A stretch of 64,000 nucleotides of DNA, from positions 1 through 64,000 of the forward strand of contig CAXBQP010000002.1 of NCBI GenBank assembly GCA_963978095.1. Reading direction: 5' to 3'. This DNA is from an uncultured bacterium. GTDB lineage: Bacteria > Gemmatimonadota > Gemmatimonadetes > Gemmatimonadales > Gemmatimonadaceae. Below are positions 51,432 through 58,898 of this stretch, piece by piece; the first letter of the stretch is position 1, and each line of letters begins with the position of its first letter. The notes under the pieces were generated by a model. The model was not told where the DNA came from and ran no database searches. It worked only from the letters and a program-made list of their open reading frames with translations. Made by a program: the position numbers and the translations under genes.

Positions 51432-52022
51432 ATGAAACGACTGCTGATTCCCTTCGCCGCGGCACTCCTTGCCGCCGCATCCGGTACCTCCGCGCTCTCC
51501 GTGTCGCAGGCCAAGGCCGCGGCGGCGGAAGCTCAGGCCAAAGCGAAAGTGGTCCACGACAGCCTCGCGCGCGTGGCCGCGGACTCCCTGAAGCGTGTGG
51601 CAGAGGCCAAGCGCGTGGCCGACAGCACCACCGCGGACAGCATCATGGCGTCGGCGTCCCACGCCGCCCCGACACCCGCCACCGTCCCGGCAACCCCTGC
51701 CGCCAAGACGCCCGTCGCGACTGCCGTTGTCAACAAGAGAAGCACCACGCCCGAGCTGAAGCCGCCGACGGCCGGTCTGCTGGCCGGCCCGCTGCAGAGC
51801 GGTGACGCGGTGCTGCCCAGCGGCCGTCTCTCCAAGATTTTCGCCACCATGTCCGCCAAGGACGCCGCCAAGGTGCTCGCGCACCTCGATGACGTCGATG
51901 TGTCGCGCATCCTCGGCGCGGTCAACGACAAGCGGGCGGCCGAGATCCTCGCGCTCCTGCCGTCGGAACGCGCCGCCGCCATCAGCAAGTCCGCGCTCAA
52001 GTCACCCGCGAGCGGCAAGTGA
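51432..52022 (+). CDS. MotE/FlbB/YlxF-like (MgtE N-terminal-like) protein
   Basis: Signal or anchor segment, then LSKIFATMSAKDAAKVL...KRAAEILALL; located after fliJ. Confidence 0.75.
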   Translation: MKRLLIPFAAALLAAASGTSALSVSQAKAAAAEAQAKAKVVHDSLARVAADSLKRVAEAKRVADSTTADSIMASASHAAPTPATVPATPAAKTPVATAVVNKRSTTPELKPPTAGLLAGPLQSGDAVLPSGRLSKIFATMSAKDAAKVLAHLDDVDVSRILGAVNDKRAAEILALLPSERAAAISKSALKSPASGK

Positions 52023-53509
52023 ACAGCATCCCGTCGTTCGTTCCGGTCAACGCACCGGTCGCGCCGACGGCCGACGCCTTCGCCGATGCGCTGAGTGGCG
52101 CAACCTCGTCCAGCGCCTTTGCCGGTGCCTTGGACCGCGCCACACGGGTTCGTGAGACCGACGATCTGGATGCAGCCAACGCCGAGAAGGCGGAAAAGAA
52201 GCGCCGCGAACAGGATGACGCCGAGCGTGCCGCGTCCGGCTCCACCGGTGAAACGAGCTCCGGGACGAGTGCCCTGCGTGCGTTGCTGGCTCGTGCCTCG
52301 CTCGAATCGTCTGGCGTGACCACCCGGGTCGATGCGCTCATCACGGAAAAAGCCGCTCGCGAAGCTGCGGGGAGTGATCCGTCGATCGTCTTCAAGGATC
52401 CGGCACTCCTGCAGCCGGAGTTCCGCAGCAAGCTGGCGCGTGTCGTGCAGCGCGTGAAGGGCGAGACCGGCGCCGATGTCACGATCGCCGAGACCTGGCG
52501 GAGCCAGACGCGACAGAATGCGCTCTATGACCAGGGGCGCTCGACGAGCGGCCCGGTGGTGACCTGGACCCAGAACTCGCGCCATTCGTCCGGGTTGGCC
52601 GCGGATCTCGTGGTCGCAGGCGGCACGGCGAGCCAGTACGCCGCCATGCAACAGATCGCCAATGAGGAAGGGCTTCGGACGCTCGGCGCCAAGGACCCTG
52701 GCCACGTCGAACTGAATCTCGGTACCCTGCAGCAGCAAACCGGCGCGTCAGTGCTTGGCGCGGAGATCAGCGTGGCGGCCCCCGGTCAACAGGCCTCGCT
52801 GGCGCAAGGCGCACAGGTGGCACAGGTGGCCACGGTCGCCCAGGTGGCGGATGTCGCGGAGGTGGCCCATGTCGCCACGATCGCGACCCCTGGCGTTGCG
52901 TCGAAGTCTGACAGCACGGCGGCGGCCGCCACGGGCGCCGGCGCCTCCGTTCGGTCCACCAAGTCGTCGCGTTCGTCGCGCTCCTCTTCCGACTCGCGTA
53001 ACGAGGGCTCGAACGCCGGCAACGGTGGCAGCGGCACGAGAACGCCACAGCCGGCCTTGGTGTCCCAGCTCGGCAGCCCGGTCAACACCGGCGGTGTGAG
53101 TGCCCCGCGGTTCGTCGCGCCGCTGCCCAGCGATGCCGCGGCCCGCGTGGATCGCGTCTTGGCGCTGCAGGATGCCCGTGCCGCTCAGCCCATGAATCAG
53201 ATGCTGCTCCGCGTCGACGACGGCGCCGGCGGCGAGGACCGGATCCGCATCGGGACGATCGGGTCGCGCGTGGGCGCGACGATCGACCTCGCGGACCCCA
53301 CACTCGCGGCCCAGATCGGCCTGCGGGCCGCCGAACTCGGCAAGACGCTGGCTGCACGCGGCCTCTCGATGGATGCGCTGCGCGTGCGCGGCACCGGCGG
53401 CCCCGCGTCGACGACGAACGACCTGCTCAACGCGCTCGTCGCCAATGGCGACCTTGCCCCGACTCCTTCCCGTCGCCGCACCGGCGGCACCACCGGATCC
53501 CAGCCATGA
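52019..53509 (+). CDS. fliK: FliK-like hook-length control protein with internal M15 Zn-peptidase domain
   Basis: Located directly before flgD; low-complexity linkers; C-terminal FliK-C-like beta/alpha pattern; internal WRS..RQ..LY.QGR, SRH-x6-D, DPGH. Confidence 0.75.
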   Translation: MNSIPSFVPVNAPVAPTADAFADALSGATSSSAFAGALDRATRVRETDDLDAANAEKAEKKRREQDDAERAASGSTGETSSGTSALRALLARASLESSGVTTRVDALITEKAAREAAGSDPSIVFKDPALLQPEFRSKLARVVQRVKGETGADVTIAETWRSQTRQNALYDQGRSTSGPVVTWTQNSRHSSGLAADLVVAGGTASQYAAMQQIANEEGLRTLGAKDPGHVELNLGTLQQQTGASVLGAEISVAAPGQQASLAQGAQVAQVATVAQVADVAEVAHVATIATPGVASKSDSTAAAATGAGASVRSTKSSRSSRSSSDSRNEGSNAGNGGSGTRTPQPALVSQLGSPVNTGGVSAPRFVAPLPSDAAARVDRVLALQDARAAQPMNQMLLRVDDGAGGEDRIRIGTIGSRVGATIDLADPTLAAQIGLRAAELGKTLAARGLSMDALRVRGTGGPASTTNDLLNALVANGDLAPTPSRRRTGGTTGSQP

Positions 53510-54189
53510 CCATCCCGATGATCGGTTCGACCGCTGCCAGCAGCGGGGCAACGACGAGCGCGGCCGCCAAGACCATGCTGGGCAAGGACGACTTCATGAA
53601 GTTGCTCGTGGCCCAGATGCAGCATCAGGATCCGCTCAATCCGAGCGACAGTTCCCAGATGGCGGCGCAGTTGGCGCAGTTCTCGTCGCTCGAGCAGCTC
53701 ACCAACATCTCACAACAGATGGCGACGCAGGCCTCGGATTCCGCGACGCTCGTGAACACGGTCAACAACTCCTCGGCCATCGGCCTGCTCGGCAAGACCG
53801 TCACCGTCCTGGACGACACCGTGCAGGTGGGAGGATCCTCTCCGACCACGACCGCGTCGACGATGGTTGGCGCCGGCGGTGGCGACTTCACCGTACGACT
53901 CGAAGACGCGAATGGCTACACCGTGGCGACGCAGCATGTGGGACGTGTCTCCGGCGGTCAGCAGAACGTGTCCCTCGATTCGCTCACCAGTGGGCTCCCG
54001 GCGGGGAACTACAAGGTCGTCTTCGATGTGACCAATGGCGTTGGCAGCACGCAAACGATCGCGCATCCGACCGCCACCGTCGCCGCCCACGTGGACGGCA
54101 TCGGCTTTGGCACGAATGGTGCAGTGGTCAGCAGCGGTTCCAAGCAGTACACGATCGGACAAGTGCTCTCCGTCCACGCGACCAACTAA
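53506..54189 (+). CDS. flgD: Hook capping protein FlgD
   Basis: LGKDDFMKLLVAQMQHQDPLNP, QLAQFSSLEQL. Confidence 0.95.
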   Translation: MTIPMIGSTAASSGATTSAAAKTMLGKDDFMKLLVAQMQHQDPLNPSDSSQMAAQLAQFSSLEQLTNISQQMATQASDSATLVNTVNNSSAIGLLGKTVTVLDDTVQVGGSSPTTTASTMVGAGGGDFTVRLEDANGYTVATQHVGRVSGGQQNVSLDSLTSGLPAGNYKVVFDVTNGVGSTQTIAHPTATVAAHVDGIGFGTNGAVVSSGSKQYTIGQVLSVHATN

Positions 54190-54207: not shown

Positions 54208-55521
54208 ATGCTGAACTCGCTCAACACCGGACTCGCGGGACTGAAGAACCACCAGTCCATGATGGACATGATCGGCAACAACATCGCCAACGTGAACACC
54301 CTCGCCTTCAAGTCTGGCCGCATGACCTTCAAGGAAGGGTTCGCGGACATGCTGCAGGGCGCCACGGCCCCGACGACTGGTCAGGGCGGCTCGAATCCGA
54401 TGCAGCTCGGACTCGGCTCGACGATCGGCGCCATCGATACGTCGTTCACGCAGGGCAACTTCCAGTCCACCGGGCGCAACACGGACCTCGCAATCACCGG
54501 CAGCGCCATGTTCGTGACGCGCTCCGGCAATCAGCAACTGTACACCCGCTCCGGCAACTTCCAAGTGGATGGGAACGGCACGCTCATCGCGCCGCCGACC
54601 GGCGCCGTGGTGCAGGGTCGTCTCGCCACCAATGGCATCCTGGGCACCAGCGTCGGCGACATCGTGCTGCCCTTCGGGCAGAAGACGGCCGCGCACGCGA
54701 CCACGTCCATGAAGCTGTCGGGCAACCTCGATGCCTCCGCCCCGGTGTTCGACACCAGCTCGTACCAAGGCAGCGCCGAGGGGTTCAACGCCACCACCGG
54801 CGCGAATCCCGTCAACGCCAAGTCCTGGAGCGAGTCCTCGCTCACCGTCTACGACTCGCTCGGCAACAAGTACGACGTGCGCGTCAACCTGTGGAAGTCG
54901 GGCACCTCGGAGTGGACGTGGGCGGTCGACCCGCAGAGTCTCACCGACGCCAAGGTTCCGGCAGATTCGATCTCCGGCGGTGGTGTGCTCAGCTTCGGCC
55001 CGGATGGCATGCTGACCGCGCCGAGCCCGGGCACAATCAACTTCGCGCCGCCGGGCGCCAAGCCCGTCATCATCAACGTGGACCCCGGGAGCGGAGTCAA
55101 CGGACTCACCGACATCGCCTCTCCGACCACCGCCGTGTTGCGCGATCAGGACGGCTACACCTCCGGCCTGCTGCAAGATTTCACGATCGACCGCAACGGC
55201 GTAATCTCGGGATCGTTCAGCAATGGTCAAACGCTGACGCTGGCCCAGGTGTCGCTCGCCGACTTCAACAACCCCGACGGACTCATCCGTGCCGGCGACA
55301 ACATGTATCAGGCCTCGGCCAACTCCGGCAGCCCCGTCCTCGGCTTCGCCGGCGAAGGCAGCCCGTCGAGCATCACGAGCGGCGCGCTCGAGCTGTCCAA
55401 CGTGGACCTGGCCAGCGAGTTCACGCAGATGATCGTTGCGCAACGTGGCTTCCAAGCCAATAGCAAGGTCATCACGACGTCGGACGAAATGCTGCAGGAA
55501 ATCATGCTGCTCAAGCGCTGA
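54208..55521 (+). CDS. flgE: Hook protein FlgE
   Basis: IGNNIANVNT, DLAITG, YDSLG, LELSNVDLASEF...AQRGFQAN. Confidence 0.96.
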   Translation: MLNSLNTGLAGLKNHQSMMDMIGNNIANVNTLAFKSGRMTFKEGFADMLQGATAPTTGQGGSNPMQLGLGSTIGAIDTSFTQGNFQSTGRNTDLAITGSAMFVTRSGNQQLYTRSGNFQVDGNGTLIAPPTGAVVQGRLATNGILGTSVGDIVLPFGQKTAAHATTSMKLSGNLDASAPVFDTSSYQGSAEGFNATTGANPVNAKSWSESSLTVYDSLGNKYDVRVNLWKSGTSEWTWAVDPQSLTDAKVPADSISGGGVLSFGPDGMLTAPSPGTINFAPPGAKPVIINVDPGSGVNGLTDIASPTTAVLRDQDGYTSGLLQDFTIDRNGVISGSFSNGQTLTLAQVSLADFNNPDGLIRAGDNMYQASANSGSPVLGFAGEGSPSSITSGALELSNVDLASEFTQMIVAQRGFQANSKVITTSDEMLQEIMLLKR

Positions 55522-55766: not shown

Positions 55767-56300
55767 ATGACAGTCCCGAACACCGCCACGGAAGGCGCCG
55801 AGCAGCCCGCGAAGAAGCCCGGCATGATGCCTATCATCGCAGCCGCGCTCATCGGGATCCTTGTCGGCGCCGCGGCTGGGAGCTTCGTCATCGGACCCAA
55901 GCTTGCCGCATCGATGCACATCGGTACGATGACTGCCGCCGACTCCGCCAAGCTCGCGGAGGCGGAAGCGCCCTCGGGCAAGGAGGGCAAAGAAGGGGCG
56001 TCGAACGTGCACATGATCGAGAACCTCGTCCTGAATCCGGCGGGCTCCAACGGCTCGCGTTTCCTGCTGGTGTCCGTCGGCCTCACGATGAACTCCACGG
56101 GCGCCGCGGCGCGCGTCAAGGAACAGGACGCCGAGGTGCGGGACATCGTCCTGCGCGTTCTCGGCAGCCGCTCAATCAATGACCTCTCGGAGGTCGGCAA
56201 TCGCGACCGGCTCAAACAGGACATCCTCTCCGCCGTCGACTCGCTGTTCAAGGGTCGTTCCGTGAAGAGCGTCTACTTTCCGCAGTTCGTGCTCCAGTGA
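55767..56300 (+). CDS. fliL: FliL
   Basis: TM helix, LVLNPA..RFL, EVRD, VYFPQFVLQ. Start must lie downstream of the sigma54 promoter. Confidence 0.92.
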   Translation: MTVPNTATEGAEQPAKKPGMMPIIAAALIGILVGAAAGSFVIGPKLAASMHIGTMTAADSAKLAEAEAPSGKEGKEGASNVHMIENLVLNPAGSNGSRFLLVSVGLTMNSTGAAARVKEQDAEVRDIVLRVLGSRSINDLSEVGNRDRLKQDILSAVDSLFKGRSVKSVYFPQFVLQ

Positions 56301-57286
56301 CCGCGCCCGCGTCGAATCCTTCGGACGTCGCGGGCGAGGCGCGCGACACCCTGTCGGCGGGTGCGACCCTCGGCGGCAAGGCGGCCAAGCCCGTCACGGT
56401 TCATCCGTACGATTTCAACCGCCCGTACCGTATCTCGACCGACCGCATGCGCACGCTCGAAGCCATCTTCGAGCGCCTGTGCAAGTCGCTCGAAGCGTGG
56501 TTGATCGGCCGCGTGCGCAAGCAGGTGGAGTTCCGTCTGCTGAGTGTCGAACAGAAGACCTTCGGGGAGTTCACCCAGACCCTGCCGGTGCCGTGCGCGA
56601 GCTTCGGCTTCGAGATCGTCAACGCCGGTGGCCAGAAGGGGGTCATCAACTCCGGCGACCTGTTCTCGTTCTTCGTGGTGGATCGCCTGTTCGGCGGTGC
56701 CGGCAAATCGTCCGCCCTCTCCCGCACGTTGACCGTGATCGAGCGCATGACAGTCAAGCTGGTCGTCGAGCGCATCGGCAGCTTGCTGTCCGAGATCTGG
56801 ATGGACTACGTGCCGCTTCAGATCGAGATCACCTCGTTCGAGTCCGTGCCGGAGATGGTGCAGGCCGGGAGCCGCCAGGACCCCGTGCTGGTGGCGAACA
56901 TCGAGTTCTATGCGGATGGCGAGAGCGCGTTGATTCCGATCTGCCTCCCGTTCGGCGTGCTGGACTCGTTCTTCTCGTCCATCGAACAGCAGCGCGTCAA
57001 GCCGATGTCCGGGAGCGACGATGAGCGTCGCGTGACCCGTGAACGGGCGGAAGGCACATTGCGCAGCACGAACGTCGAGGTCTCGGCGCGCCTCCCGCGT
57101 TTCACCCTTCCCTTCCGCATGGTCCTCGGATTGCCGGTCGGTGGCGTCATGGCCACGCCGATCAGTGCGGACACGCCGATGGAACTCTGGGTCGGGGATG
57201 AACCGCGCTATCGCGGTGTGCCCGGCCGCTCTGGCACGAAACTCGCTCTACGAATCACCGAAGACGTCGACGCAACGTCGCGCTAA
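56297..57286 (+). CDS. fliM: Switch protein FliM (lacks LSQxEIDALL)
   Basis: PYDFNRP, VDRLFGG, LTVIE, ICLPF, C-terminal SpoA-like domain. Confidence 0.9.
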   Translation: MTAPASNPSDVAGEARDTLSAGATLGGKAAKPVTVHPYDFNRPYRISTDRMRTLEAIFERLCKSLEAWLIGRVRKQVEFRLLSVEQKTFGEFTQTLPVPCASFGFEIVNAGGQKGVINSGDLFSFFVVDRLFGGAGKSSALSRTLTVIERMTVKLVVERIGSLLSEIWMDYVPLQIEITSFESVPEMVQAGSRQDPVLVANIEFYADGESALIPICLPFGVLDSFFSSIEQQRVKPMSGSDDERRVTRERAEGTLRSTNVEVSARLPRFTLPFRMVLGLPVGGVMATPISADTPMELWVGDEPRYRGVPGRSGTKLALRITEDVDATSR

Positions 57287-57308
57287 ACTCGTCACTCCGA
57301 CGCCCATC

Positions 57309-57632
57309 ATGTCCGATCTCACGCAGACGCCCGAATACGAAGAGCTTGCGCCCGGCACCTCGATCACCGGGGAAGTGCCCTTGTCGATGATGCTCGACCT
57401 CTCGCTGCCGGTCTCGATTGAACTGGGCCGCACGAAGATGACCGTCCAGGAGATCCTGAACCTCGGCCGCGGATCCGTGGTGCAACTGGACCGTCTGGCT
57501 GGCGAACCGATCGATGTCTATGTCGGCGATCGTCGGTTCGCGGAAGGCGAAGTCGTCGTCATGAACGAGTATTTCGGGATCCGCATCACGCGGCTCCTCG
57601 GCGCGTCGGCGCTGGCCGACGTCGCGGCGTAG
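57309..57632 (+). CDS. fliN: Switch protein FliN
   Basis: SIELGRT, GSVVQLDRLAGEP, GEVVV, FGIRIT. Confidence 0.94.
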   Translation: MSDLTQTPEYEELAPGTSITGEVPLSMMLDLSLPVSIELGRTKMTVQEILNLGRGSVVQLDRLAGEPIDVYVGDRRFAEGEVVVMNEYFGIRITRLLGASALADVAA

Positions 57633-57653: not shown

Positions 57654-58898
57654 ATGACGGTTTCGTCGTTCATCGGCGTCCTCGGGACGCTGGGCTTGGT
57701 CCTCGGATTGCTCCTCGTCACCCTCCGGCTGCTGAAGCGGTTGTCGGTCACGACCGCGACGGGACTTGCGCCGCTCCCGTTGCGCGTCGAGCAGCGGTTG
57801 GCGATCGGCCCGCGCCAAGGGATCGCGATCGTCCGCATCGGAAGCCGCGTAGTCGCCGTATCAACCGGCGAAGGGGGGGTGCGCCGCATCGCCGACGTCA
57901 CGGACGATGCCCAAGCGCTCAACCCCTCACGGGGAGACGACAACGCCGACGCATCGACCACCGTGGGCGGTCCGGATGCCAACGCCCCAGCGGGCTTCGG
58001 CACCATCCTTCGCACCGCCATCAAGCGTTCGGTTCCACTTGCCCTGGTGGTGGCCGTCGCCGTCCAGAGTGCCGGCGCGCAGGGGACGACCAAGGCCGCC
58101 GCGAAGCCGGTCACGAAAGCGGCCGCCACCACCAAAGCCGGCGCCAAGCCGACGCCCCCAGCCGCGCCGTCGATCCAGCCGGTCGCCACCGCCGGCCGAG
58201 CCGATACGATGATCACCAAGCTCGCGCCGAAGATCGACCTGCGCGTCGGTGGCGAGAACGCCTCCGGCCTGCGCTTGTCCGGCACCGTCGGTGTGATCGT
58301 ACTCATGGGGCTGCTCACCCTGCTCCCCACGTTGGTCCTCATGATGACCGGCTTCACGCGCATCATGATCGTCCTGAGCTTTCTCAAGCAGGCCATCGGC
58401 GCGCAAAGTGCGCCGCCGACGCAGTTGGTGGCCGGACTCGCGATGTTGCTCACCGGGTTCGTCATGGCGCCGACGCTGTCCGACGTCAACAGGACCGCGC
58501 TCGAGCCGTGGATGGACGGCAAGATGGAACAGGCCCAGATGCTGAGCGAGGGCGTGAAGCCCTTTCGCGCCTTCATGTTGCGCCAGGTCCGCTCGACCGA
58601 TCTGGCCACCTACATGAAGATCAGCCGTCAGGCCCCGGTCGCCAGCGTGCAGGATGTCCCCTTGGTCGTCCTGACCTCGGCGTTCGTCACGAGTGAGTTG
58701 CGGACGTCCTTCCAGATCGGCTTCGCGCTCTTCCTGCCATTCATCGTCATCGACATCGTCGTGGCCTCGGTGCTCATGTCGATGGGCATGATGATGGTGC
58801 CGCCGGCCATGATCGCATTGCCCTTCAAGTTGCTGCTCTTCGTGCTCGTCGACGGGTGGTCGCTCGTGATCCAAGGCCTCGTCCAGAGCTTCAACTGA
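57654..58898 (+). CDS. fliP: FliO-FliP fusion protein
   Basis: N-terminal FliO pattern (TM + RLAIGPRQGIAIVRIG) in frame with FliP (LTLLP, MTGFTRI, SELRTSFQIGF, LPFKLLLFVLVDGW). Confidence 0.9.
   Translation: MTVSSFIGVLGTLGLVLGLLLVTLRLLKRLSVTTATGLAPLPLRVEQRLAIGPRQGIAIVRIGSRVVAVSTGEGGVRRIADVTDDAQALNPSRGDDNADASTTVGGPDANAPAGFGTILRTAIKRSVPLALVVAVAVQSAGAQGTTKAAAKPVTKAAATTKAGAKPTPPAAPSIQPVATAGRADTMITKLAPKIDLRVGGENASGLRLSGTVGVIVLMGLLTLLPTLVLMMTGFTRIMIVLSFLKQAIGAQSAPPTQLVAGLAMLLTGFVMAPTLSDVNRTALEPWMDGKMEQAQMLSEGVKPFRAFMLRQVRSTDLATYMKISRQAPVASVQDVPLVVLTSAFVTSELRTSFQIGFALFLPFIVIDIVVASVLMSMGMMMVPPAMIALPFKLLLFVLVDGWSLVIQGLVQSFN

Follow-up and report, generated by a model that had tools for sequence, protein, structure and literature searches.

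How does the rod of a flagellum cross the peptidoglycan layer in an organism whose FlgJ has no hydrolase domain? To our knowledge, rod passage is settled only for FlgJ proteins that bear a hydrolase and for a few cases in which FlgJ recruits a transglycosylase. The question is raised by a flagellar gene cluster of an uncultured member of the Gemmatimonadaceae (phylum Gemmatimonadota), located in a stretch of 64,000 nucleotides that we refer to as the window (positions 1 to 64,000 of contig CAXBQP010000002.1, assembly GCA_963978095.1). A first-pass annotation, made from the sequence alone, had described one open reading frame (ORF) of this cluster, at 52019-53509 on the forward strand, as a FliK-type hook ruler that carries an intact M15 peptidase domain of the L-Ala-D-Glu type. 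Here, we conclude with high confidence that the product of this ORF, which we call fliK-M15, is a FliK with an intact M15 domain, and we propose that the exported ruler probably opens the cell wall for rod passage. The ruler, the class of enzyme, and the need for wall opening are each known, and it is their combination that is new. The fusion sequences themselves are not new, as database pipelines already name members M15 peptidase or FliK; a published description of a ruler-peptidase fusion was not found in the full-text literature searched, which leaves most subscription journals outside its coverage.

Architecture of the FliK-M15 family

The ORF is open over 496 amino acids (aa). Among 5.8 billion proteins searched, 140 are relatives at E ≤ 1e-3, and those named by their sources appear as M15 family metallopeptidase, FliK, YcbK/DUF882, D-Ala-D-Ala dipeptidase, or CwlK. 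The family alignment consists of 115 sequences, namely the query and 114 of the 120 listed matches, six having been removed by hand as near-duplicates, partial sequences, or matches of short coverage. The first 89 of the 115 aligned members, all of full length, were scanned with Pfam at E ≤ 0.01, and matches were obtained to PF02120 (Flg_hook) in 67, VanY in 47, Peptidase_M15_2 in 32, and Peptidase_M15_3 in 29. The single window sequence matches the Pfam and NCBIfam models weakly (its NCBIfam matches lie far under their cut-offs), and the classification was therefore built on the family and on the fold. In an AlphaFold2 model, computed with an 89-sequence alignment, a disordered linker lies between two confidently folded domains. 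Across the family, protein length ranges from 376 to 818 aa around a constant M15 domain, and this domain is better conserved than any other part of the protein (58% mean column identity, as compared to 46% for the C-terminal domain and 15% for the whole protein). The features of the gene are listed below, where pLDDT is the predicted local distance difference test score of the model and HMM is a hidden Markov model.

52019-53509, + strand: fliK-M15, hook-length ruler with an embedded peptidase (open frame, overlaps with its neighbors, homologues, same slot in related loci)
52019-52378, + strand: N-terminal export and ruler region, aa 1-120 (non-polar extreme N-terminus, predicted helices)
52118-52132, + strand: F34-A-G-A-L38, candidate gate-recognition motif for docking on FlhB (family conservation, comparison with early substrates)
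52379-52753, + strand: M15 (LAS) peptidase domain, predicted L-Ala-D-Glu endopeptidase type, aa 121-245 (pLDDT, VIA-align, family profile, tblastn)
52499-52501, + strand: codon of R161, conserved active-site Arg (kept in 80 of 80 loci, invariant in 115 sequences)
52583-52606, + strand: H189-x6-D196, putative first two zinc ligands (aligned with S-x-H-x-x-G-x-A-x-D of Ply500 and LysB4)
52694-52705, + strand: D226-P-G-H229, putative catalytic Asp and third zinc ligand (both residues kept in 80 of 80 loci)
52754-53134, + strand: disordered Ala/Ser/Gly-rich linker, aa 246-372, presumed measuring part (pLDDT mostly <50, composition)
52817-52888, + strand: (Val-Ala-x)8 period-3 repeat, aa 267-290 (9- and 18-base periodicity in the DNA, predicted disordered)
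53135-53398, + strand: FliK-C/T3S4 substrate-specificity switch domain, aa 373-460 (pLDDT ~90, HMM, PF02120 in relatives, fold)
53399-53509, + strand: disordered C-terminal tail, aa 461-496, and stop codon (pLDDT <55)

The M15 peptidase domain

The motifs on which the first-pass annotation relied are all present in the translation, two of them a few residues later than it had placed them: LQPEFRSKL starts at aa 131, and the C-terminal MLLRVDDG at aa 395 rather than 392. The active-site stretch ETWRSQTRQNALYDQGR occupies aa 158-174 and contains R161, SRHSSGLAAD lies at aa 187-196 (H189 and D196), and DPGHVEL lies at aa 226-232 (D226 and H229). From the M15 family pattern, we take H189, D196, and H229 to be the zinc ligands and D226 to be the catalytic residue, and we assign the role of R161 on the same assumption. 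The resemblance is not due to chance, since R161, H189, D196, D226, and H229 are invariant in the 115-sequence alignment and the family profile, when run against PDB sequences, matches Ply500 (2vo9) at E 8.3e-14 and LysB4 (6akv) at E 7.9e-13. The alignment of the profile to these two enzymes covers the R...QGR and S-x-H-x-x-G-x-A-x-D stretches. Conservation was also followed at the species level in related loci, defined as the best 80 of 455 stretches that encode a relative in a scan of one genome per species. In the window and the 79 other loci, E158, R161, H189, D226, and H229 are kept in 80 of 80 and D196 in 79 of 80, with one Asn; the presumed metal and catalytic residues are thus retained by the homologues.

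The model supports the same assignment. The pLDDT exceeds 90 across most of residues 120-245, and the best PDB matches found for the domain by Foldseek are Ply500 (E 7e-6), LysECD7, LdcB, LysB4, and ChiX. Structural alignment with VIA-align (model residues 126 to ~245) gave LysECD7 at Z 10.1, Ply500 at Z 10.0, ChiX at Z 9.7, and LysB4 at Z 9.6, followed by the Hedgehog, VanY, VanX, and LdcB folds at Z 8.7 or below. The margin over the D-Ala-D-Ala enzymes is about 1 Z unit, and the closeness of the fold to the L-Ala-D-Glu enzymes is therefore suggestive and not decisive. In a tblastn search of phage genomes, the ply500 gene aligned with domain residues 18-112 at 31.8% identity (E 2e-4); the domain also aligned with genes annotated as L-alanyl-D-glutamate endopeptidase or CwlK. 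Based on conserved residues, profile, and fold, the domain appears to be an intact M15 peptidase that is nearest to the L-Ala-D-Glu endopeptidases Ply500, LysB4, ChiX, and LysECD7, with activity and bond specificity as predictions; this agrees with the type named in the first-pass annotation.

Within the M15 enzymes, the domain forms a subfamily of its own. A profile search of 1.84 billion representatives returned 454 representative clusters at E ≤ 1e-30. Among the best 150 of these 454 clusters, 141 have proteins longer than 330 aa, and in most the domain is situated well inside the protein. A search among short proteins for stand-alone relatives gave one match, a protein of 244 aa on a 2,270-base contig that is probably a fragment. 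The likely origin of the domain is, on sequence grounds, best described as endolysin-like.

The FliK-C switch domain

The first-pass annotation had also read a FliK-C pattern in the C-terminal segment. This pattern is real at the level of family and fold, but could not be recovered from the window sequence alone: the protein has no match to PF02120 (Flg_hook) at E ≤ 1, and its C-terminal domain has none at 0.01. We therefore turned to a set of 59 C-terminal domains, consisting of the C-terminal 111 residues of the window protein and of its counterparts in 58 related loci, of which 54 match PF02120 at E ≤ 0.01 (best, 4.6e-10). An HMM built from 57 of the domains, with the window sequence and its 92%-identical relative left out, matches residues 371-465 of the window protein at E 3.2e-28 (scaled to a million sequences). 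When the same HMM was run against a six-frame background, the sole other frame matched was from the same gene in the same reading frame.

The C-terminal domain, modeled alone, has a pLDDT of 78. Over the PDB, Foldseek ranked the switch domain of PscP (5cuk) first (E 2.7e-3) and FliK-C (2rrl) second (E 1.1e-2), with no match at E ≤ 0.001. Over 48,161 representative chains, VIA-align ranked 2rrl first (Z 6.7, root-mean-square deviation (rmsd) 7.7, 76 aligned residues) and 5cuk second (Z 6.0, rmsd 3.3, 65 aligned residues). These scores are modest, and the weight lies in the ranks, as two independent searches with the model placed both known ruler switch domains at the top. A sequence profile of the C-terminal domains did not find FliK among PDB sequences, its best matches being unrelated proteins at E 0.015 and above, so it is the fold searches that link the window domain to 2rrl and 5cuk. 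Membership of the FliK-C family, established by HMM and fold, bears out the identification of the protein as a FliK-type ruler. It is also the only candidate in the organism. No second FliK-C is present in the window's genome, which is 91% complete (best other PF02120 match, E 0.62), and the family C-domain profile finds one place in that genome, ORF 52019-53509.

Gene context

The flagellar region was annotated with Pfam over 45-64 kb of the window and 14 kb beyond the window edge. Upstream of fliK-M15, the order is flgC, fliE, fliF, fliG, fliH, fliI, fliJ, and an MgtE_N-like gene, and downstream it is flgD, flgE, fliL, fliM, fliN, fliO/P, fliR, flhB, flhA, and flhF. This order of the neighboring ORFs places 52019-53509 in the fliK slot, as the first-pass annotation had it (with the MgtE_N-like gene as motE-like). 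The GTG start of fliK-M15 and the stop of the preceding gene share GTGA, and its own stop shares ATGA with the start of flgD; 4-base overlaps at both ends suggest the tight coupling that is expected within an operon. The immediate neighbors are as follows.

51432-52022, + strand: MgtE_N-like gene, 196 aa, between fliJ and fliK (PF03448, E 1.8e-6)
53506-54189, + strand: flgD, hook cap (PF03963, E 1.1e-23)
54208-55521, + strand: flgE, hook (Flg_bbr_C, FlgE_D2, Flg_bb_rod)

The same order of neighbors is found in the 80 related loci, with FliI in 72, the MgtE_N-like gene in 72, FlgD in 68, and FlgE in 67; the misses are mostly loci that end shortly past the match.

Two features of the surrounding genes are recorded here. 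fliO and fliP form one ORF of 414 aa (window 57654-58898), with FliO at aa 27-123 and FliP at aa 217-409, and a fused arrangement of 373 aa is also found in a genome of another lineage of the phylum, f2 (L084:6729-7850). The longest fliN ORF (57039-57632) overlaps the end of fliM (56297-57286) by about 250 bases, which suggests that the true start of fliN is probably farther downstream.

The N-terminal region and linker

The region ahead of the peptidase is modeled by AlphaFold2 as helices at residues 33-72, 81-95, and 104-119, with low to moderate confidence. It shows no Sec signal or membrane span, the maximum 15-residue Kyte-Doolittle average being 1.25 over the whole protein and 0.98 over the first 60 aa. 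The F34-A-G-A-L38 motif fits F-x-x-x-L, which we take to be the consensus for gate recognition. F34 is kept in 109 and L38 in 91 of 112 family members, and F-x-x-x-L is likewise present at the corresponding position of the plain FliKs of lineages f2 and f10. More broadly, F-x-x-x-[LIVMF] occurs at positions 29-45 in seven of seven early substrates (FlgC, FlgD, FlgE, FlgF, FlgG, FlgJ, and fliK-M15) and is not found at these positions in FlgK, FliI, or FliG of the same organism. Early flagellar substrates are described as having two export signals, a hydrophobic extreme N-terminus and a gate-recognition motif that docks on FlhB, the latter at residues 36-40 of FlgD and 39-43 of FlgE (PMC8983047). 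The motif is short, and so it serves only as supporting evidence for export. The absence of a Sec signal and the F-x-x-x-L at aa 34-38 are indirect signs that the protein may be exported by the flagellar type III system.

The linker at aa 246-372 is predicted to be disordered, as would be expected for a ruler. Within it, at least four (Val-Ala-x) units are present in 94 of 115 family members, mostly 33-75 aa past DPGH, and the repeat is not seen in any of the four FliKs without an intact M15 domain that were examined. The (Val-Ala-x)n repeat thus seems to travel with the enzyme module.

Distribution across Gemmatimonadota

The best 80 of the 455 stretches are nearly all from Gemmatimonadota (Gemmatimonadaceae, Gemmatimonas, Longimicrobiaceae, and Longimicrobiales), the few odd labels belonging to short contigs. 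With the C-domain and M15 profiles, we searched 301 genomes sampled evenly over the phylum. The FliK-C profile identified FliK in 66 of the 301 genomes, which comprise 34 of lineage f1 and the window's genome, 25 of f2, and two each of f4, f7, and f10. The M15 profile gave strong matches (E ≤ 3.3e-44) in 37 genomes, comprising 32 of f1 and the window's genome, two of f4, and two of f7. In all 37, the M15 match is on the same contig as the FliK-C match and in an open frame of equal length. The survey of the gene upstream of flgD that had been suggested with the first reading of the locus therefore finds the fusion in f1, f4, and f7 and plain FliK in f2 and f10, where the M15 domain is present in 0 of 25 and 0 of 2 FliK-bearing genomes, respectively. 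A phylum-wide fusion is rejected on these counts, and the fusion is limited to some clades. In the ESM Atlas, the neighborhood of the family contains only FliK-like clusters of Gemmatimonadota, and the fusion was not seen in another phylum, although a search of this kind cannot prove absence.

Two f1 FliKs lack a working peptidase (L089:1331-3052, - strand, and L088:1420-3357, + strand), one with a decayed remnant of the domain and one with none. Other genomes of the genus to which the FliK without any M15 belongs do carry the domain.

FlgJ and other wall hydrolases

The first-pass annotation had noted that flgJ is absent from the window and might lie beyond its edge. The gene is found 5.7 kb past the edge, at contig positions 69683-70009, between flgI and flgN/flgK, as a separate gene whose product of 108 aa consists of the rod-binding domain only. 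A FlgJ match was obtained in 36 of the 37 fusion genomes. Whether such genomes have a FlgJ without a hydrolase domain had been posed as a survey question, and in all 29 fusion genomes examined FlgJ is rod-binding only. These are the window's genome, 20 in which the longest possible FlgJ ORF is 98-124 aa, and eight with long stop-to-stop frames in which 3-21 residues separate the end of the FlgJ match from the stop and the rod-binding domain is the only one recognized by Pfam. In the other seven, the FlgJ open frames are 105-224 aa, below the ~295 aa of the two-domain form.

A different arrangement is found in f10, which belongs to a different class of the same phylum. FlgJ was matched in 13 of 13 f10 genomes, and the frames are at least 295 aa in 11 of them. 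The two f10 FlgJs that were examined have a rod-binding domain joined to an SLT lytic transglycosylase domain (292 and 297 aa; L085:1284-2162, - strand, and L086:1335-2228, + strand), and the f10 FliK that was examined is plain, with 1072 aa and a canonical PF02120 at 76 bits. The same phylum thus includes a lineage in which FlgJ carries a hydrolase and another in which FliK does. In f2, one cluster was annotated, which has a plain FliK of 598 aa (L084:821-2617, + strand) and a rod-binding-only FlgJ of 112 aa (L084:18999-19337, + strand). A strict either/or relationship between M15-FliK and two-domain FlgJ was therefore rejected, as f2 has neither.

No hydrolase is visible among the genes annotated with Pfam from 45 kb of the window to 14 kb past its edge. 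The window's genome has one detectable SLT gene (contig 70, 5258-5542, - strand, in a 658-aa open frame), far from the flagellar genes. Five f1 genomes have one to three SLT genes and five f2 genomes have three to six, none within the flagellar cluster. A complementary pattern in these numbers was considered; the counts, along with a small SLT gene that is present in both lineages, do not discriminate. The fliK-M15 protein has no match to PF10135, and its comparison with FlgJ is one of function only and not of homology. When the M15 domain and the single-domain FlgJ were modeled as a complex, the prediction had a score of 0.00 against a mark of 0.32, a result that bears neither way on binding.

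Proposed function and alternatives

Our proposal is that this FliK, as the sole FliK of the organism, would measure the hook and flip the flagellar type III export gate, and that the M15 zinc peptidase placed between its N-terminal export region and C-terminal switch domain would stand in for the hydrolase domain that is missing from FlgJ in the fusion genomes. As an early substrate, FliK would pass unfolded through the export gate during rod building, with no other route to the periplasm. Until the wall and the outer membrane have been crossed, the protein would emerge at the rod tip in the periplasm, where the M15 domain could refold, bind zinc, and cut stem peptides between L-Ala and D-Glu, such that the local loss of cross-links would let the rod pass. 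Once the outer membrane has been breached, later FliK molecules would leave the cell, and wall cutting would be switched off automatically. Since periplasmic release would last only until rod and hook cross the envelope, cutting would be confined in space and time without a separate regulator. We put the probability that the exported ruler opens the wall for rod passage by means of its M15 domain at roughly 60%. That the enzymatic ruler drills the peptidoglycan for its own machine with its location setting the timing is, in our estimate, an even bet.

Support for the delivery step comes from a study of FliK (PMC13344023), according to which FliK is secreted continuously while rod and hook assemble. 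In that account, a FliK-beta-lactamase fusion is exported to the periplasm, is active there, and confers ampicillin resistance, which is highest in mutants unable to build past the rod; the low resistance of the wild type is ascribed to FliK secretion that precedes outer-membrane penetration. These findings indicate that a FliK-borne enzyme can reach and fold in the periplasm and that its delivery self-stops once the structure opens to the outside.

A number of observations weigh against the proposal. Taken by itself, the window protein remains under the Pfam cut-offs for the enzyme (17.5 bits for VanY, where 25 are required, and 16.5 for Peptidase_M15_3, where 23.2 are required), and M15 membership rests on the family profile and the fold. 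In the one f2 cluster annotated, no hydrolase is found from fliJ to flgN, and the plain FliK and single-domain FlgJ of this lineage imply that flagella can be built in the phylum without either fusion. Within f1, the FliK of genome G089 is without any trace of M15, and that of G140 has a 38-bit remnant that has lost the H-x6-D His and the entire DPGH, from which it follows that the domain is dispensable in at least some lineages. Finally, a housekeeping SLT gene is present in every genome checked, and FlgJ could recruit its product. The f2 pattern and the losses in G089 and G140 fit an accessory role of the enzyme at least as well as an essential one.

The accessory role is the content of one alternative, in which M15 is active on peptidoglycan but the wall is opened by a housekeeping lytic transglycosylase that single-domain FlgJ recruits, and the FliK-borne peptidase helps only under some conditions, for example in the heavily cross-linked wall of stationary phase. 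Besides the losses, the f2 lineage, and the ubiquity of SLT genes in the genomes checked, this explanation draws on the reported binding of SLT-type enzymes by single-domain FlgJ (PMC8517470) and, by analogy, on a phage tape-measure motif that is described as dispensable yet useful in stationary phase (TM4; PMC1796659). It has to contend with the near-perfect conservation of the active site over 80 species-level genomes, in a domain that is the most conserved part of the protein, and with the single SLT gene of the window's genome, distant from the flagellar genes. We consider it unlikely. The conservation of the active site also tells against a role in which M15 serves the ruler and not the wall. 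A folded, zinc-stabilized, or peptidoglycan-binding module, which is unfolded at the gate or grips the wall, might slow or pause FliK secretion, tune the timing of the switch, or add a fixed increment of length. Such a role would suit the position of M15 within the measuring region, with the export signal before it and the switch domain after it, and the family lengths that differ greatly around a constant domain, and PMC13344023 ties the speed of FliK secretion to the probability of switching. However, R161, D226, and E158, which would be expected to serve catalysis and not folding, are as invariant as the metal ligands, and the plain FliKs of f2 and f10 work without any such module, which makes this role improbable.

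The peptidase might instead act after FliK has been expelled, attacking the walls of other cells or recycling wall fragments, with the flagellum as a secretion route for a lysin. The nearest relatives of the M15 domain are indeed phage endolysins. However, Gram-negative targets are shielded by their outer membrane against an attack from outside, the amounts of FliK made are small, and the fusion is strictly tied to the flagellar operon and co-occurs with a hydrolase-less FlgJ. Release of FliK to the outside once the structure has crossed the outer membrane is described in PMC13344023, and even so we regard an extracellular lysin as very improbable.

Significance and comparison with known systems

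Under the preferred explanation, in which the exported ruler opens the wall for the rod, the fliK-M15 family offers a concrete candidate for a wall-opening enzyme in a poorly studied phylum, with a different chemistry (stem peptides and not glycan strands) and a different carrier (a secreted ruler). If this is true, no ruler of type III secretion would have been described with a catalytic domain before, so far as the literature searched shows, and flagella would have a third way through the wall, independent of two-domain FlgJ and of the transglycosylases that FlgJ recruits. The lysin-carrying tape measures of phages would then have a cellular counterpart. It would also mean that a folded enzyme can be accommodated in the measuring region of a ruler, a point of relevance to the way in which FliK determines length. 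For comparison, the phylum provides natural variants in which the domain is intact, decayed, or lost, FliK is plain, or, in a sister lineage, FlgJ is fused to SLT.

With Salmonella FliK (PF02120, 2rrl) and PscP (5cuk), fliK-M15 shares a disordered measuring region and a C-terminal domain of the T3S4 type, and with FliK also the slot before flgD and flgE; the N-terminal F-x-x-x-L is held in common with plain FliKs. It differs from them in having a folded catalytic domain inside the ruler region, and its C-terminal domain is too divergent for the PF02120 model. The M15 domain resembles Ply500 (2vo9), LysB4 (6akv), ChiX (5opz), and LysECD7 (8q2g) in fold, and the M15 L-Ala-D-Glu endopeptidases, including CwlK, in the H-x6-D ... 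D-x2-H pattern and the conserved Arg. In contrast to these endopeptidases, it does not belong to a free-standing lysin that has a wall-binding domain or travels by Sec or a holin, but is embedded in a protein that is predicted to be exported by a type III system.

The FlgJ of Salmonella is exported by the flagellar type III system and has a glucosaminidase-type domain of GH73, unlike the SLT domain of f10 FlgJ. Hydrolase-bearing FlgJ and the FlgJ-recruited enzymes SltF and LTaseBb share with fliK-M15 its proposed job, the local opening of the wall for the rod. The FlgJ hydrolases cut a glycan bond and would thereby differ from fliK-M15, for which a cut in the stem peptide is predicted; the fold is also another, and the carrier is the rod cap as opposed to the ruler. 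Elsewhere, single-domain FlgJ is stated to depend on separate lytic enzymes (PMC8517470). A match in chemistry is TagX of the Acinetobacter type VI secretion system, which is reported as a Ply500-like L-Ala-D-Glu endopeptidase required for passage of that system through the wall (PMC5061870). TagX is also an endopeptidase of this kind that serves an envelope-spanning machine in crossing the wall of its own cell, but it is a separate protein anchored in the inner membrane, whereas the enzyme of fliK-M15 is part of a secreted flagellar ruler. A parallel in architecture is the tape measure gp17 of mycobacteriophage TM4, for which a peptidoglycan-hydrolase motif that is dispensable for assembly is reported (PMC1796659). 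Both are rulers with a wall-degrading module, and dispensability on the phage side matches what the losses in G089 and G140 suggest for fliK-M15. The two proteins and their machines are unrelated, and the phage enzyme attacks the host wall from outside at infection.

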